64,000 nt of DNA from an uncultured Acidimicrobiia bacterium (lineage in GTDB: Bacteria; Actinomycetota; Acidimicrobiia; Acidimicrobiales; CAIXPF01), in NCBI GenBank assembly GCA_903921205.1, contig CAIXPF010000139.1, forward strand, positions 7,733 to 71,732. Direction: 5' to 3'. Positions 50,625 to 63,794 of this stretch are shown in pieces (within the stretch, counting starts at the first letter, position 1; each line of letters starts with the position of its first letter). The notes below the pieces were generated by a model. The model was given only the letters and a program-made list of their open reading frames with translations. It was not told the origin of the DNA and searched no databases. A program made the position numbers and the translations under genes.

Positions 50625-50681
50625 GGCCGTCAAGTTAGTCGTGCTCGCGGTGGGTGTTCCCGACGCCATTAGCTTGGGCTC

Positions 50682-52760
50682 GTGACCGTCCCCGAACCGC
50701 CCATCGCCAAAGTCCGACCCGTCGCCACGACGGTGTGGGGCGATACCCGCGTCGATCCCTACAGCTGGATGCGGGACCGCGAGGGCGACCCGGATGTGCT
50801 CGCCTACCTCGAGGCGGAGAACGCCTACACCGCCGCCGCCATGGCCCATACCGAGCCGTTGCAGGAGCAGTTGTTCGAGGAGATCCGCGCCCGCATCCAG
50901 GAGACCGACCTGTCCGTCCCGGTCCGCAAGGGCGGGTGGTGGTACTACTCACGCACGGAGGAGGGCAAGCAGTACGGCATCAGCTGTCGCCGCGCCGCTG
51001 CGGCCGACGGCAGCTACGACGAGTCGGTCCCCGAGCAGGTGGTGCTCGACGAGAACGTCGAGGCCCACGGCCACGAGTTCCATGCCACCGGGGTGTTCGA
51101 CGTCAGCCCCGACCACCGGCTGCTGGCGCACGGGGCCGACACCACCGGCGGCGAGCTCTACCAGTTGCGGTTCCGGCGGATAGAGGACGGCTCCGACCTC
51201 GACGAGGTCATCGACGGCGTGTACTACGGCTCCGCCTGGTCGGCGGACAACCGCTACTTCTTCTACACCCGCCCCGACGACGCGATGCGGCCGTGGCAGG
51301 TGTGGCGCCACGAGCTGGACACCGACCCCGCCACCGACGTGAAGGTGTTCGAGGAGCCCGACGAGCGCTTCTACTGCGGGGTCGAGCTCGGCCGCGACGA
51401 GCGCTACCTGTTCATCCACAGCGGTTCCAAGGTCACCGACGAGGTGTGGTTCCTCGAGGCCGACGACCCCACGGGCGAGTTCCGCGTGGTCGAGCCCCGC
51501 CAACAGGGCCTCGAGTACGGGGTGTCGCACTCCCACGACCGGTTCCTGGTGCTCACCAACGCCGACGGGGCCGAGAACTTCAAGCTGTGCGAGGTGGCCG
51601 TCGCCACGCCCGGCATGCAGAACTGGACCGAGGTCATCCCCCATCGCCCGGCGGTGAAGCTGGCCGGCATCACCACGTTCGCCGATCACCTGGTCATCTA
51701 CGAGCGGGTCGACGCGACGTCGCAGATCCGGGTGCGCCGGCTCTCCGACGGGGCCGAGCACACCATCGAACAGCCCGAGCTGGTCGGCACCGCCGGCGGT
51801 GGCGCCAACCCCGAGTTCGACACCACCGTCTTCCGGTACCGCTACGAGTCGATGCGCACGCCCTCGACGGTGTTCAGCTACGACCTCGACACCCGGGAAC
51901 GCACGGTGCTCAAGCAGCAGCCGGTGCTCGGCGACTTCGACCCCGACCGGTATGTCACCGAACGACTGTGGGCCACCGCGACCGACGGCACCGCAGTACC
52001 GATGACGGTGGTCTACCGGCACGGTTTCGAGCGCAACGGTGCCGCACCGACCCTGCTCTACGGCTACGGCTCCTACGAGGCGAGCATCGACCCCTACTTC
52101 TCGTCGATCCGCCTGTCGCTGCTCGACCGCGGCTTCTGCTTCGCCATCGCCCACATCCGCGGCGGCGGCGAGATGGGACGACCCTGGTACACCCAGGGCA
52201 AGTTCCTGGCCAAGCGCAACACCTTCGGCGACTTCATCGCGTGCGCCCGCCACCTCGTCGAGGGCGGCTGGACCTCGCCGGACCGTCTGGCCATCCGGGG
52301 TGGTTCCGCCGGTGGGCTGCTCATGGGGGCGGTGGTGAACGAGGCACCGGACCTGTTCGGGGCGGTGGTCGCCGAGGTGCCCTTCGTCGATGCGCTCAGC
52401 ACCATCCTCGACCCGTCGCTGCCCCTGACCGTCATGGAATGGGAGGAGTGGGGCAACCCGACGGAGTCCGAGGAGTACTACCGCTACATGAAGTCCTACG
52501 CCCCCTACGAGAACGTCGAGGCGAAGGACTATCCGCCGATGCTGGTCACCGCCGGCCTCAACGATCCGCGGGTCAGCTACTGGGAGCCGGCCAAGTGGGT
52601 GGCCAAGCTGCGGGCGACCAAGACCGACACCAATCGCCTGCTCCTCAAGACCGAGATGGGCGCCGGCCACGGCGGACCGTCGGGTCGTTACAACGCCTGG
52701 CGGGACGAGGCGTTCGTGCTGGCCTTCCTGCTCGACACCCTGCCGGGGCCGACCTCCTGA
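50682..52760 (+). CDS. ptrB: S9A prolyl oligopeptidase family, oligopeptidase B-like
   Basis: N-terminal [10 protein letters not shown]...YLEAENAYT. Catalytic [10 protein letters not shown] nucleophile elbow. C-terminal GAGHGG. Confidence 0.9.
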
Positions 52761-55302: not shown

Positions 55303-55420
55303 GGGCGCACGATAGATCCTGGTGGGGGCCACCGCGGCTGCCGGTGGGCCCTGCCACCGCCGGCGTGGGGTACGGCCGCGAACGCCGGTCGCCGCCGGGA
55401 CCATCACCAGGAACGAACAG

Positions 55421-57846
<2,426 letters not shown>

Positions 57847-57850
<4 letters not shown>

Positions 57851-59883
57851 GTCGCACTGCGAAGTCCTATGACGCCGATGCCATCCAGATGCTCGAGGGC
57901 CTCGAGGCCGTCCGCAAGCGGCCGGGCATGTACATCGGTGGGACCGGCTCCGACGGTCTGTCGCACCTGCTGTGGGAGCTGATCGACAACGCCATCGACG
58001 AGGCCGCCGCGGGGCACGCCGACGCGGTCACGGTCACCTTCCACGACGACGGCTCCTTCGAGGTGGCCGACAATGGCCGAGGCATCCCCATCGACCGGCA
58101 TGCCCGCAAGAAGGTGTCGGCGCTCGAGGTGGTCTTCACCGAGCTGCATGCCGGCGGCAAGTTCGGCGGGGGCGCGTACGCCGCGTCGGGTGGCCTGCAC
58201 GGCGTCGGAGCCTCGGTGGTCAATGCCCTCGCCCGCAAGCTGGTCGTCGAGGTCGACCGCAACGGCCAGACCCATCAGCTGACCTTCGTCGAGCGGGTCG
58301 CGGGCCGCTACGACGGCAACCGGTTCCGGCGCAACCACGATCTCGAGGTCGTCGGCAAGGTGCCGGAGAGTCGAACCGGCACGCGGGTGCGGTTCTGGCC
58401 CGACACCGACATTTTCGACGCCGATGCGGTCATCTCCTATGTCGACGTCCGTGACCGGGTGGCACAGATGTGCTTCCTGGTACCGAAGCTCGAGGTCGTC
58501 CTGATCGACCGTCGCCCGGGGGGCACCGGCGAGCCGGAACGGTTCGTGTCCAATCGGGGCCTCGTCGACTATGTCGAACACCTCTCCGTCGGCGAGCCGC
58601 TGACCGAGGTGCTGACCATCACCGGCGACGGCTCCTACGAGGAGAACGTGCCGGTCGACGGCAAGATGGCCGTCGTGCAGCGGCCCTGCCAGGTCGAGCT
58701 CGCCCTGCGCTGGGTCAAGGGGTACGACACCAAGCTGGTCAGCTTCGTCAACACCATCCCGACCATCGACGGTGGCACCCACGTCGCCGGTCTGGAACGG
58801 GCGATGACGTTCGCGCTCAACGACAAGCTGTCCTTCGACGAGGCCAAGAAGCTCAAGAAGTTCAAGGACGAGGCCCGCGCCACCCGTGAGGACGTGCAGG
58901 AGGGGCTCGTCGCAGTCCTCAAGGTGACCGTCCCCGAGCCCCAGTTCCGCGGTCAGACCAAGCGGGAGCTGGGTACCCCGAAGGTGCAGTCGATCACCTA
59001 CGACGTGGTGAAGAACGGCATCGTCGACTGGGTCGCCTCCGGCAAGAAGAGTCACGTCAACGCGGTCCGCGACAAGTTGATCGCCGCCATCGAGGCCCGC
59101 CTGCTGTCCCGTCAGCAACGCGAGACCCTGCGCCGGGCGTCGGCGTTGGGTTCGACCGGGCTGCCCGACAAGCTCGCGGACTGCCGGTCCACCGACGTGG
59201 CCGAGACCGAACTGCTCATCGTCGAGGGCGATTCGGCGGCCGGGCCGACCAAGGGCGGCCGCAACAGCGAGTTCCAGGCGGTCCTGCCCATTCGGGGCAA
59301 GATCCTCAACGCCGGAAAGGCCACCCTCAAGCAGGTCCTCGAGAACGCCGAGGCCGAGGCGATCTTCACCGTCATGGGTGCCGGCTCGGGTGCGGCGTTC
59401 GACCCCGACGCCGCCCGCTACGGCCGGGTGGTGATCCTCGCCGACGCCGACGTCGACGGGGCCCACATCCGCTGCCTGCTGCTGACCCTGTTCTACGCCT
59501 ACATGCGACCCTTGCTGGCCCAGGGTCGGGTGTACGTCGCCATGCCGCCGCTGTTCACGATCAAGGAGACCGCCGGCGCGAAGGCGAAGCACTTCGCCTA
59601 CGACGATGCCGATCGCCTGCGGATCTGCGGGGAGCTGAGCGCAGCCGGTCGCAACTTCAAGGTCGGCCGGAACAAGGGTCTCGGCGAGATGGACGTCGAC
59701 GAACTGGCCCAGACCGCCCTCGATCCCGAGACCCGGGTGTTGCGCCGGGTGACCCTCGACGAGGCCGAGGCCGTTGCTGCGGCCAGTGCCTTCGACGTCC
59801 TGATGGGCCGCGACGTCGGGCCTCGGCGGGACTGGATCGTCGAGCGAGCGGCCTTCGTCGATCGCGAGATTCTCGACATCTGA
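57847..59883 (+). CDS. second type IIA topoisomerase, subunit B (ParE/GyrB-like)
   Basis: [54 protein letters not shown], Toprim EGDSAAGP and [12 protein letters not shown]. The GTG start overlaps the subunit A stop (GTGA). Confidence 0.9.
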
Positions 59884-60310: not shown

Positions 60311-61042
60311 GTGACGAACTCGGATTCTGCTGCGGCCCCCTCCACGGAGGGGGCCGTCGCGCGTGTGCGTGCCGCCGGAACGGCCAGCCGTCAGCGGCTC
60401 GCCGAGCTGATCGAGACCACGCTGAACCGGATCTTCGACGCCCCGCTCGACATCCGCAACGGCGTCGAGGCGTTGCGGGCCATCGACCCGACCAACGATG
60501 CCGCTGTTGCCCAGGGTGCAGTCCGTAAGGCGGCCGAGTGGGGTGCGGCCCGGGCCGTCGCCAAGGTCGGGGCCCGCTACGGCTCGAAGGCGGCCAGCCG
60601 GATGGTCATCCCGCTCACCGTCGCCATGGAGTTCGGCCTCAACGCGCGTGACGGGCTGCGCGAGCTGCAGGTCCTGGCCAGCTTGCTGGTTGGCAGGTTG
60701 CGGGCCGAGGGCTATCCGGTCGAGCCGGAGTTGGTGCGTCGCACGGTGCTCGCCGTCTATCTGGAGCCTGGGAACCGACCCGATCTGCGGATCCCGTTGC
60801 ACCGCCGGACGCTGCACCTGGCCCGACGCTGGACCTTCAACACCCTGCCGCTCACCGGCCGCCATCAGGCGAGCCTGGTCCGCCGTCGGGTCGACACCAT
60901 GGCCGGGCTGTACCTGTCGGTTCTGTTGGAGGACTGGGCGCGGGTGTGCGCCATCGAGACCTCGCTGGTCCCACCTCGGCAGATGCTCGAGGGCCGGATC
61001 GCCGACCCCGGCTCCGCCGGCTCGGCCTCACCGACCCACTGA
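60311..61042 (+). CDS. hypothetical protein co-oriented with the ferredoxin
   Basis: 243-aa ORF starting (GTG) 11 nt after the ferredoxin stop. Coding-like GC3. No recognisable motif. Confidence 0.55.
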   Translation: MTNSDSAAAPSTEGAVARVRAAGTASRQRLAELIETTLNRIFDAPLDIRNGVEALRAIDPTNDAAVAQGAVRKAAEWGAARAVAKVGARYGSKAASRMVIPLTVAMEFGLNARDGLRELQVLASLLVGRLRAEGYPVEPELVRRTVLAVYLEPGNRPDLRIPLHRRTLHLARRWTFNTLPLTGRHQASLVRRRVDTMAGLYLSVLLEDWARVCAIETSLVPPRQMLEGRIADPGSAGSASPTH

Positions 61043-61154: not shown

Positions 61155-62117
61155 TCAGTCGTCGAAGCCCACGCAGGCACGGCAGGCGATCTCCTCGCCG
61201 TGGCGCAGCTCGGCGAGTTCCCGGTCCTCGTCGGACTGGTACTGCGGCGTGTCGAAGCGTTCCGTCCGGCTGTCGGAACGGGGCGCGCCCCGGTCGGCCT
61301 TCGACTTCGGTGCGGTACGGCTGTCGCCGCGCATGGGGTCGGCCCGCCAGGCATCGTCACCCCAGTGCAGACCGAGGTCGACGATGGTGCCGGCGACGGT
61401 CGCCTCCTCGAAGGCGGTGAAGGCCGCCTCGAGCAGCGCCCGTTGGCCGGTCGGGTCGTGGGGTTGGCCGGTGGTATGGCCGAGCGGGTAATCCACGAAG
61501 GCCGCTCGGGGCGGGTTGACCGCCGCGGTGATCGACCAGGCGGAGGTCATGCTCAGCGTGGGGATGCCGGCGGCTTCGAGCGCTCGTGCGATCAGACCGA
61601 TCGACTGGTGGCAGACCGGTCAAACGGGCACGAGCAGCACGGCGTCGGCGCCCTGGCTGGTCATGCGTTCGACCAGCGCCGGCGCGAGCTCCTCCCGGAC
61701 CCGCCGCGCCGAGTAGATGCCGCCCATGAACGTGTAGCACTCGTCGGTCAGGCCTCCGAGCCGGCCGTCGGCCACCATGGCTCGCAGGGTGTCGATGGGG
61801 AACACCACGTTGATGTCGGAGCGGGCGTCGCGGGTGTCGTAGGCGAAGTGCGTGGCGCGAAGCTCGTCGGTGGGCACGTCGCTGGAGATCACCCGGTAGG
61901 ACGCATCGTCGCGGTAATGGAAGGCGATCTGGCCGCGGCGATAGACGCCGCCCGAGGCGATCAGGCCGATCCGGCAGTCCGACAACGGCTTGGTCAACGG
62001 GGTCCACGGCGGTGGTTCCTCACTGTGGACCCAGCCATACGGGGGGTAGCCCAGCGAGTCGTACGTGCGCCGGGTGACCTCGATGTAGTCGACGGGAGTT
62101 GCCTCGTTGGCGTTCAC
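61155..62117 (-). CDS. GrdB-family (glycine/sarcosine/betaine/proline reductase B-like) protein with in-frame TGA at 61620-61622; probable selenoprotein
   Basis: ORFs 61620..62894 and 61155..61550 share one frame and are separated only by TGA. Read-through gives ...GADAVLLVPV-U-PVCHQSIGLIARALEAAGIPTLSM..., a U-x-x-C motif. A SECIS-like hairpin follows. N-terminal start proposed at GTG 62115-62117 (uncertain). Confidence 0.7.
61588..61605 (-). ncRNA. candidate bacterial SECIS apical hairpin
   Basis: The minus strand reads G-[U]-CGAUC-GGUCU-GAUCG-C, starting 15 nt after the A of UGA. It has a 5-bp stem, a bulged U below it closed by G-C, and a loop beginning GGUC. This is the same layout I recall for E. 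coli fdhF SECIS. Confidence 0.5.
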
Positions 62118-62138
62118 GGCATGGCAGGCTAGACCGCT

Positions 62139-63794
62139 ATGGCCGACCCCGTTGCCCTGCTTCCCGGTGAAGGGGTCAGCCTGGCGGACATCGAGGCGGT
62201 GCTCCTCGGCCCGCTGGCCTGTCACCGCAGCGGGGGAGGGTCGCTGGAGCGGACCTACTACGACACCTTCGACGGCCGGGTCTTCCGGGCGGGGATGGTC
62301 GTCGAGCACGAGCGCATCGACGGCCGGCGCTGGTTGCGGGTGCGTCGTCTCGGTGAGACCGCAGCGCTGGCACAGGCGGCACTGCCCCAGGTCCCGGCGC
62401 GGGTGTCGGCGCTCGCCGATCGGCGCCTGCGCGAGCTGCTGACCCCGGTCGTGGGCGAACGCGCCCTGGTGCCGGTGGTGGCCACCGAGGGCGAGGTGGT
62501 GCGGTTCGCGCCACTCGACGAGTTCGACAAGAGCACGGTGCGCGTCTCGGTGGTGGTCGGTTCCGCCCGGGCGGTCGGCCGGTCCCCGAGCCGCAAGCAT
62601 CTGCTCGAGCCGGTGATCACCATCGCGCCGGTGCGAGGCCACGGCCGGGCCCACCGTACGTTGGTGCGGGCGGTGTCCGAACGGCTCGGCCAGCGCCCCG
62701 CAGCCGAGCCGCTGCGCCGGGCCGCCGGCGCGGTGGGGCTCGAACCCGGCATCGATCCGGCAGACCGGTCCGTCGGTCTCGACGCAGGCGCACCGGCCGC
62801 GGACGCCGTGACGGCGTTGCTGACCCGTCACGCCGCCGTGCTCGAGGCGGTCCTGCCGGGCATGCGCACCCGCCTCGACGACGAGTTCCTCCACGACTTC
62901 CGGGTCACCCTGCGTAGTGCCCGGGCCATCGTGGCCGCGGCGGACGGCATCCTCGGTGACGAGCGCCGCAGCGAACTCGCCGCATCGTTGCAGCGGTTCG
63001 GCACGCTGACCTCACCGGTGCGCGACCTCGACGTGCTGCGGGTGCGTTGGGTCGACGACGACGTCCTGTGCCTGTTGGTCCCGGCGCTCGACGCCGAACG
63101 CGAGGTGGCGCACCGGGTCCTGTGCGAGGCGCTCGACGAACCGGCGTTCGCCGCCCTGTTGGCCGCGCTGCGCGCGCCGGTGCCGTCGGCCGGGGTGGCC
63201 GGGGTCGGCGGGGTCGACGAGCCCGGCGTCCCGCCCAGCGCCGCCAGTTGGGCGGCCGAGGTGCTGTCGGCCGAGCTCGATCGCCTGCACCGCAGGGCCC
63301 GGCGGATCCGGCCGGCCGGTGCCCTGCAGGCCGATGACGGTTCCGGCCCCGGGGTCCGGCCGGCGGCATCCTTCGACGAGACCGCGGTGCACGACACGCG
63401 CAAGGCCGCCAAACGCCTGCGCTACCTCCTCGATGCCTTCGGCTCGCTCGACCGTGGCGGGCGCCTGGGCTCCTTGCGGCGGGCCCTGCGCCAGATGCAG
63501 GCCGACCTCGGCGAGTTCCAGGACGCAGTGGTCACCATCGCCGCCATCGAACGGGCCGGGGCACAGCTCGCCGGGTTGACGCCCGAGACGCTCATGGAGC
63601 TCGGTCGTCGGAGTGAGCAGCACCATCACGCCGCCGAGCTCGCCGTGGACCATTTCGTCGAGCACTACCGGGACCTGGCCCGGCGTCGCCGGCATCTCGC
63701 CCATCGCATCGAGGCCCTCGCTGCACCGTCCCGGCCGACGCCCGCATCGACGGTGCGCACGGCCGCCGCACACGCAGGCCGGGTACGACCATGA
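62139..63794 (+). CDS. CYTH-like plus CHAD domain protein
   Basis: N-terminus [17 protein letters not shown]...LRVRR resembles CYTH strands, although no ExExK opening is seen. C-terminal CHAD-type helices with conserved-His blocks ([30 protein letters not shown]). Confidence 0.78.

Follow-up and report, generated by a model that had tools for sequence, protein, structure and literature searches.

The DNA analysed here, called the window, is a stretch of 64,000 nucleotides from the genome of an uncultured Acidimicrobiia bacterium. Towards one end, on the minus strand, it carries two open reading frames, 61620..62894 and 61155..61550, which lie in a common frame. A first-pass annotation, made from the letters alone, had taken them for one gene whose sole break is the TGA at 61620-61622, and translation of 62117..61155 bears this out: 321 codons are obtained with a single internal stop, TGA 61622-61620, which is codon 166 and follows 165 uninterrupted codons. 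In the joined frame this codon is set in the context AVLLVPV-stop-PVCHQSIGLIARALEAAGIPTLSMTSAW, and the reported VLLVPV-stop sequence thus reads as described. The cysteine of the resulting U-x-x-C motif, Cys169, is encoded at 61613-61611. The features of the locus are collected in Table 1.

The larger of the two frames is formally 424 codons long and overlaps a CHAD-domain gene (62139..63794) on the opposite strand. Its upstream stretch is spurious, a product of the high GC content, and the true start is the GTG at 62117. Public assemblies with an identical sequence also begin the gene at this GTG, and they call two products, of 165 and 131 amino acids, the latter beginning at ATG 61550, with 23 codons between the TGA and this ATG. 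It had been predicted that standard gene callers would split or truncate the gene; this is what the public calls do, and the close homologs in databases stop at the same LVPV.

The immediate neighbours are the CHAD protein, a ParA-like ATPase, a hypothetical protein, a 4Fe-4S ferredoxin and two topoisomerase subunits, with ordinary housekeeping genes farther out. The GyrA/ParC-like and GyrB/ParE-like genes probably constitute a topoisomerase IV or a second gyrase operon. The gene for the 243-residue protein and the CHAD gene adjoin the interrupted gene in other assemblies too.

In DNA this rich in GC, two open reading frames in the same frame and a hairpin of 5-6 bp would not be an improbable outcome of chance. 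What raises the case above chance is that homology continues past the stop and that other genomes have kept the TGA.

Table 1. Features of the interrupted gene and its surroundings in the window (positions are those of the window)
Feature	Position	Strand	Remarks
Complete gene, predicted selenoprotein	61155..62117	-	320 codons + stop; GTG start 62117-62115; terminal TGA 61157-61155; matches to GRDB and PrdB models
In-frame TGA, codon 166, very probably read as selenocysteine	61620..61622	-	Cys column in homologs; TGA in 93 related loci
U166-P-V-C169, putative redox-active selenol/thiol pair	61611..61622	-	P167, C169, H170 and Q171 invariant (43 homologs)
C312-R-A-C315 (CxxC), possible second redox centre	61173..61184	-	CxxC close to the C-terminus is shared by almost all members of the Sec type
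Position of the family-consensus SECIS (alignment columns 20-38)	61591..61609	-	C-A and U-U mismatches in the window; loop GAUCG
Downstream hairpin: G, bulged U, CGAUC, loop GGUCU, GAUCG, C	61588..61605	-	-5.2 kcal/mol in the window
243-aa protein, no Pfam match	60311-61042	+	Convergent with the selenoprotein gene
4Fe-4S ferredoxin, single-cluster, 89 aa	60030-60299	+	Convergent with the selenoprotein gene
GyrB/ParE-like gene	57847-59883	+	A-then-B order
GyrA/ParC-like gene	55316-57850	+	4-nt overlap with the GyrB/ParE-like gene
Prolyl oligopeptidase gene	50673-52760

Homology and conservation across the stop codon

For database searches, the joined product was given a cysteine at codon 166. 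The first-pass annotation had expected the joined 320-residue product to align with the Pfam domain GRDB (PF07355); it does so over residues 40-163, ending just before the Sec position, at 41.4 bits against a cutoff of 22. The NCBIfam model TIGR04483 (PrdB) aligns with residues 35-249 (E = 1.3e-48, 165.5 bits) and spans the TGA. The objection that the annotation had raised against itself, namely that the downstream product might not align with the C-terminal half of the family, is thereby answered. The two frames are one gene, as had been proposed; its ascription to the GrdB family needs amendment, however, as the protein is far nearer to PrdB (165 bits) than to GrdB (46-54 bits).

A search of 5.8 billion proteins returned two classes of homologs, distinguished by length. 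The full-length ones have about 290-315 residues, are 44-54% identical to the window protein and continue past the junction with C-P-V-C-H-Q. The nearer ones are 58-74% identical and only about 176-220 residues long; all those sampled end at LVPV, except P0037. At column 166 at least 90% of the 43 full-length homologs have cysteine, as had been foreseen for homologs without Sec, and the residues after it are strongly conserved (Table 1). Column 166 is, thus, a Sec/Cys column.

Two full-length homologs have threonine at column 166, P0001 (L098:6001-7044, codon ACA) and P0016, and both keep PVCHQ. Threonine in place of a supposedly catalytic residue is unexpected. P0037, a database protein of 195 residues, has tryptophan in place of Sec (FFPVWPVCHQ), probably because TGA was translated as Trp, by an alternative genetic code, in the source of the record.

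In the species genomes of GTDB, a scan detected at least 578 relatives. The best 80 of these, which match across both halves and in which query residues 1-320 are covered by tblastn, were used further. The nearest relative (L002), from an Acidimicrobiia metagenome-assembled genome (MAG, CANJRG01), is 92% identical, and it assigns the organism of the window to this class. The codon before PVCHQ is TGA in 80 of the 81 genome loci (L001-L081). A search of metagenomes for close relatives gave 14 loci, quite uniform and at most 67% identical, and TGA is found in all 13 of the further metagenome loci, which brings the total to 93 of 94. Among these is a Sargasso Sea contig, AACY023836033.1 (L087), with a 64%-identical homolog and the same TGA. 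The TGA loci cover about ten phyla; their record titles name Actinomycetota, Myxococcota, Chloroflexi, Gammaproteobacteria, Binatia, Entotheonella, Spirochaetales, Gemmatimonadota, Acidobacteria and Methylomirabilota, among others.

Between the window gene and its 92%-identical relative, dN/dS is 0.10 before the TGA and 0.16 after it, with dS at about 0.35. From this it follows that the second half, too, is translated and kept by purifying selection, which speaks strongly against both a pseudogene and two independent genes. That the locus holds two genes, one for a 165-residue GRDB-domain protein and one for an unrelated 131-residue protein from ATG 61550, is how the public assemblies call it, but the likelihood of this is close to nil, given that full-length homologs are single polypeptides with an unbroken alignment over the junction, that the PrdB model crosses it, and that the 23 codons between TGA and ATG hold the invariant PVCHQ motif.

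Hairpins downstream of the TGA

Bacterial selenocysteine insertion might be expected to leave a trace in the mRNA after the UGA, and the first-pass annotation had pointed to a hairpin of the fdhF SECIS type, starting 15 nt after the A of UGA (the downstream hairpin of Table 1). The 66-nt stretch around it folds no better than its shuffles (z = -0.84; of 200 shuffles, 39 do as well), and the fold of minimum energy is another structure. The latter, which pairs GACCGGUC, including the GA of UGA, with GAUCGGUC, was rejected on inspection of the alignment, because its pairs 12-30 and 15-27 are mismatched, without compensation, in other members of the window's own subgroup.

An alignment of 54 nt around the Sec codon in 82 sequences gives a clearer picture. 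The RNAalifold consensus is a hairpin of columns 20-26/32-38, with additional pairs 17-18/40-41 and a loop NGUNG. Three of its pairs have compensatory changes: 21-37 is UA in 51 sequences and CG in 16; 25-33 is UA in 68, AU in 3 and UG in 4; and 24-34 is GC in 76 and AU in 4, the last arising by CAG to CAA together with CUG to UUG, both of which are synonymous. Overall, 93% of the cells are paired and none of 500 shuffles matches the covariation score; further compensated cases occur among the metagenome loci. In P0001, where the codon is ACA for threonine, this hairpin is broken. The family, thus, has a SECIS-type hairpin of its own, and it sits 4 nt upstream of the one proposed from the window.

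The window does not conform well to this consensus. Its copy of the family hairpin has a predicted energy of -4.0 kcal/mol, against about -9 to -13 kcal/mol in most members, and both candidate hairpins are weak there (-4.0 and -5.2 kcal/mol). The C-A and U-U mismatches responsible for the departure are common to a subgroup of ten sequences (the window, L002, L005-7, L056, L067, L084, L088 and L094). In the seven members evaluated, the family hairpin is at -4.0 kcal/mol in six and at -0.3 kcal/mol in L056, and it is only in the window, L002, L005-7, L056 and L067 that the downstream hairpin is the more stable. In the window and L002, an A replaces loop position G28; the GU of the family loop is lost by this change and a pair in the downstream hairpin is improved.

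The downstream hairpin has no family-wide covariation in the 82-sequence alignment (76% paired, no better than shuffles), and within the subgroup covariation support is lacking because the sequences are nearly identical there. This near-identity extends to the synonymous sites. In all ten sequences codons +3 to +11 are frozen at their third positions, GGT and GCA codons among them, which one would expect to be disfavoured in DNA so rich in GC, while the flanking codons for equally conserved amino acids vary freely at the third position. Given the frozen sites and its slightly greater stability, the downstream hairpin is plausibly the local SECIS. The pattern suggests that the subgroup is under selection at the RNA level and that its SECIS has probably shifted 4 nt downstream. 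The earlier proposal of an fdhF-like SECIS, then, stands in so far as the hairpin exists at 61605-61588 and is favoured in the window subgroup, but the covariation supports the hairpin 4 nt upstream of it.

Counted from the U of UGA, the loop GU lies at nt 22-23 in the family hairpin and at nt 26-27 in the window type; in the SECIS of Escherichia coli fdhF it lies at nt 23-24. The likeness to that element consists in a hairpin soon after the UGA with GU in the apical loop, to which the downstream hairpin adds a GGUC-type loop and a bulged U. The stems of the family and of the window are shorter and weaker than that of fdhF.

Decoding of the TGA

The genes for selenocysteine synthesis and insertion do not lie close by. 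With E. coli K-12 SelA, SelB and SelD as tblastn queries, no selA, selB or selD was found in the 64-kb window, and ARAGORN and Rfam found only a tRNA-Ile there and no tRNA-Sec. Loci L001-L060 likewise yielded no tRNA-Sec, and among loci L001-L081 the tblastn search for sel genes gave only one selD. The latter belongs to an Acidimicrobiales MAG (L073:8492-9499), is 41% identical to E. coli SelD and is located about 5 kb from the PrdB-like gene. We infer from the gene itself that the organism of the window would be able to decode Sec.

The sole exception among the 94 loci is Blastococcus tunisiensis DSM 46838 (NZ_FOND01000003.1, L018:10487-10489), which has TAG at the Sec codon. Its family hairpin is intact (-11.7 kcal/mol) and is followed by a conserved continuation of 137 residues that includes the CxxC. 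A tRNASec(CUA) has been reported in Geodermatophilaceae (PMC5330540), and the Blastococcus copy would fit recoding of UAG as Sec by such a tRNA. The UAG-Sec proteins named in that study are FDH, UGSC and AhpC; the PrdB-like family is not among them.

A pseudogene, in which a nonsense mutation has disabled what was once a gene of the Cys type and left the frame beyond it to decay, could be read from the one internal stop, the weak local SECIS and the empty search for sel genes within the 64-kb window. It is nevertheless exceedingly improbable: the same TGA recurs in 93 related loci of many phyla, the downstream dN/dS is 0.16, the synonymous sites after the TGA are frozen, and the TPQYQ and C-terminal CxxC motifs are intact.

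It might also be supposed that the UGA is translated, but as a standard amino acid, by a near-cognate Trp or Cys tRNA or under a reassigned code; the Sec machinery is, after all, not found within the 64-kb window, and P0037 is recorded with W at this place. Other genes of the window terminate at TGA, as does the selenoprotein gene itself, which tells against this reading. Against it stand also the covarying SECIS-type hairpin that follows the codon throughout the family and is lost in the Thr-type homolog, the Sec/Cys pairing typical of selenoproteins, the Acidimicrobiales relative with selD near the gene, and the Blastococcus TAG, which matches the known tRNASec(CUA) (PMC5330540). This explanation is, thus, highly unlikely.

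Selenocysteine is the preferred reading. Very probably, on the comparative evidence, 62117..61155 forms a single functional gene that encodes a selenoprotein of 320 residues, a member of the PrdB/GrdB superfamily, and its UGA166 is decoded as Sec with the aid of a hairpin.

Relation to known selenoproteins and possible function

Proteins of this kind have been met before. In the Sargasso Sea survey, the family named "proline reductase PrdB" (pfam07355, UxxC) comprised 42 Sec genes and one Cys homolog (Zhang, Fomenko & Gladyshev 2005, PMC1088965), and in the GOS survey it comprised 235 Sec genes and 110 Cys homologs (Zhang & Gladyshev 2008, PMC2398784), which places it among the most abundant selenoprotein families of both data sets (PMC1088965, PMC2398784). 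The window protein has the PF07355 domain, Sec as the first residue of UxxC and 64% identity to the Sargasso Sea homolog; nothing essential separates it from this family. Because the family has been in selenoprotein surveys since 2005, the find of the first-pass annotation is correct but unsurprising.

Reviews list both D-proline reductase (TIGR04483, UxxC) and GrdB (PF07355, UxxCxxC) among selenoproteins (PMC9312934, PMC13188914). With GrdB, GrdF and GrdH, the selenoprotein B components of glycine, sarcosine and betaine reductases, the window protein shares the Pfam GRDB domain and a Sec at the equivalent position. However, it is about 110 residues shorter, no grdA, grdC, grdD or grdE lies nearby, and it scores only 46-54 bits with GrdB-type models whose cutoffs are 65-800 (46.3 against 602 for TIGR01917, 50.5 against 65.45 for TIGR01918). 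The GrdB-like U-x-x-C that had been claimed is present as such, but the window motif, U-P-V-C-H-Q-S, lacks the third cysteine of GrdB's UxxCxxC (PMC13188914).

The nearer relative is PrdB, the 26-kDa selenoprotein subunit of clostridial D-proline reductase (Kabisch et al. 1999, as cited in PMC13188914). Its model, TIGR04483, is the best curated match, over 215 residues, and the Sec is again in UxxC. Together with the name given to the family in the marine surveys (PMC1088965, PMC2398784), this top score might indicate a true PrdB whose prdA lies elsewhere in the genome. The evidence makes this very unlikely. The 165.5 bits fall well below the equivalog cutoff of 300; the window protein is longer (320 residues against a model of 238 positions), with some 70 extra C-terminal residues that include a CxxC; and its neighbours are unrelated, with neither prdA nor prdC nor any other prd accessory gene beside it. 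The spread of the family across about ten phyla points the same way, and these phyla are not known for Stickland fermentation. The protein is not an orthodox subunit of D-proline reductase; it is the stand-alone "PrdB" selenoprotein of the marine surveys, in which the stand-alone family was not separated from true PrdB.

All open reading frames within 7 kb of the gene were clustered for 82 loci and the commonest clusters were annotated. No neighbour is common to all 82 loci, and none of the commonest annotated clusters is PrdA-, PrdC- or GrdA-like. The recurrent neighbours are enoyl-CoA hydratase (29 loci, often adjacent), acyl-CoA dehydrogenase (13), luciferase-like monooxygenase (13), short-chain dehydrogenase (12), MaoC dehydratase (9), a DUF427 protein (9) and NDP-forming acyl-CoA synthetase (9); one recurrent cluster has no Pfam match. 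No CoA enzyme lies beside the window gene.

In three Cys-type loci (L099:4784-6004, L100:4779-6008 and L101:4880-6004), a family-III CoA-transferase gene lies upstream, and its stop and the start of the PrdB-like gene overlap by 4-8 nt, an arrangement suggestive of coupled translation. As a general feature of the family this adjacency was rejected: it fails in the Sec-type loci and in the window, where the only copy of a family-III CoA-transferase is 55 kb away. The gene of the Thr-type P0001 lies after one for an NDP-forming acyl-CoA synthetase.

An AlphaFold (AF2) model of the Cys homolog P0002 (pLDDT 92.9) has Cys174, the equivalent of Sec, between a strand (167-171) and a helix (175-190). 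Redox-active CxxC and UxxC motifs are usually found at such a junction of strand and helix. Neither structure nor sequence leads to a known relative in the PDB: the best Foldseek hit of the P0002 model had E = 0.011 and a TM score below 0.3, which is not usable, and phmmer against PDB sequences gave a single chance match (E = 0.2). At the other end of the protein, nearly all Sec-type members (L001-L096) have a CxxC about 10-25 residues after a TPQYQxxxDR motif. It is absent from the Entotheonella copies (L025, L041, L057, L059 and L060), and the Cys-type homologs are mostly without it, too. The C-terminal CxxC may be a second redox centre tied to the use of Sec.

A mechanism can be sketched from these elements. 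The UGA at codon 166 would be read as selenocysteine, aided by a hairpin in the mRNA beginning 13-15 nt beyond it; in the lineage of the window this SECIS would have moved 4 nt downstream. Sec166 and Cys169, at the junction of strand and helix, may cycle between selenol/thiol and selenenylsulfide, and Cys312-x-x-Cys315 may pass on electrons from a thiol reductant, recharging the U166/C169 pair. The protein would act alone; if it works without a pyruvoyl PrdA partner, it is probably not a D-proline reductase. Its substrate could be CoA-linked, since acyl-CoA metabolism is indicated by the gene neighbourhoods of other lineages. It is, therefore, tempting to speculate that the PrdB-like selenoproteins of the stand-alone kind, rather than being subunits of a proline reductase, are distinct single-chain selenol/thiol oxidoreductases, with a C-terminal CxxC relay and a CoA-linked or other small substrate, and that the SECIS of the window lineage has moved 4 nt downstream; taken as a whole, this proposal is tentative, a real possibility that stops a little short of being probable.

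The interpretation first given to the locus is right in substance, and the current understanding of the family is not changed by the window gene. What the window adds is a member from the Acidimicrobiia whose SECIS is a variant one. A point for annotation is that the gene is stored as two unrelated open reading frames, while the entries for most of its closest relatives break off at the Sec codon. If the SECIS shift is true, it would be an example of SECIS turnover within a coding sequence. The gene marks the Acidimicrobiia organism of the window as a likely selenium user, and a clean full-length member, together with the SECIS variants and the clues from gene neighbourhoods, should be useful for finding the function of the family.
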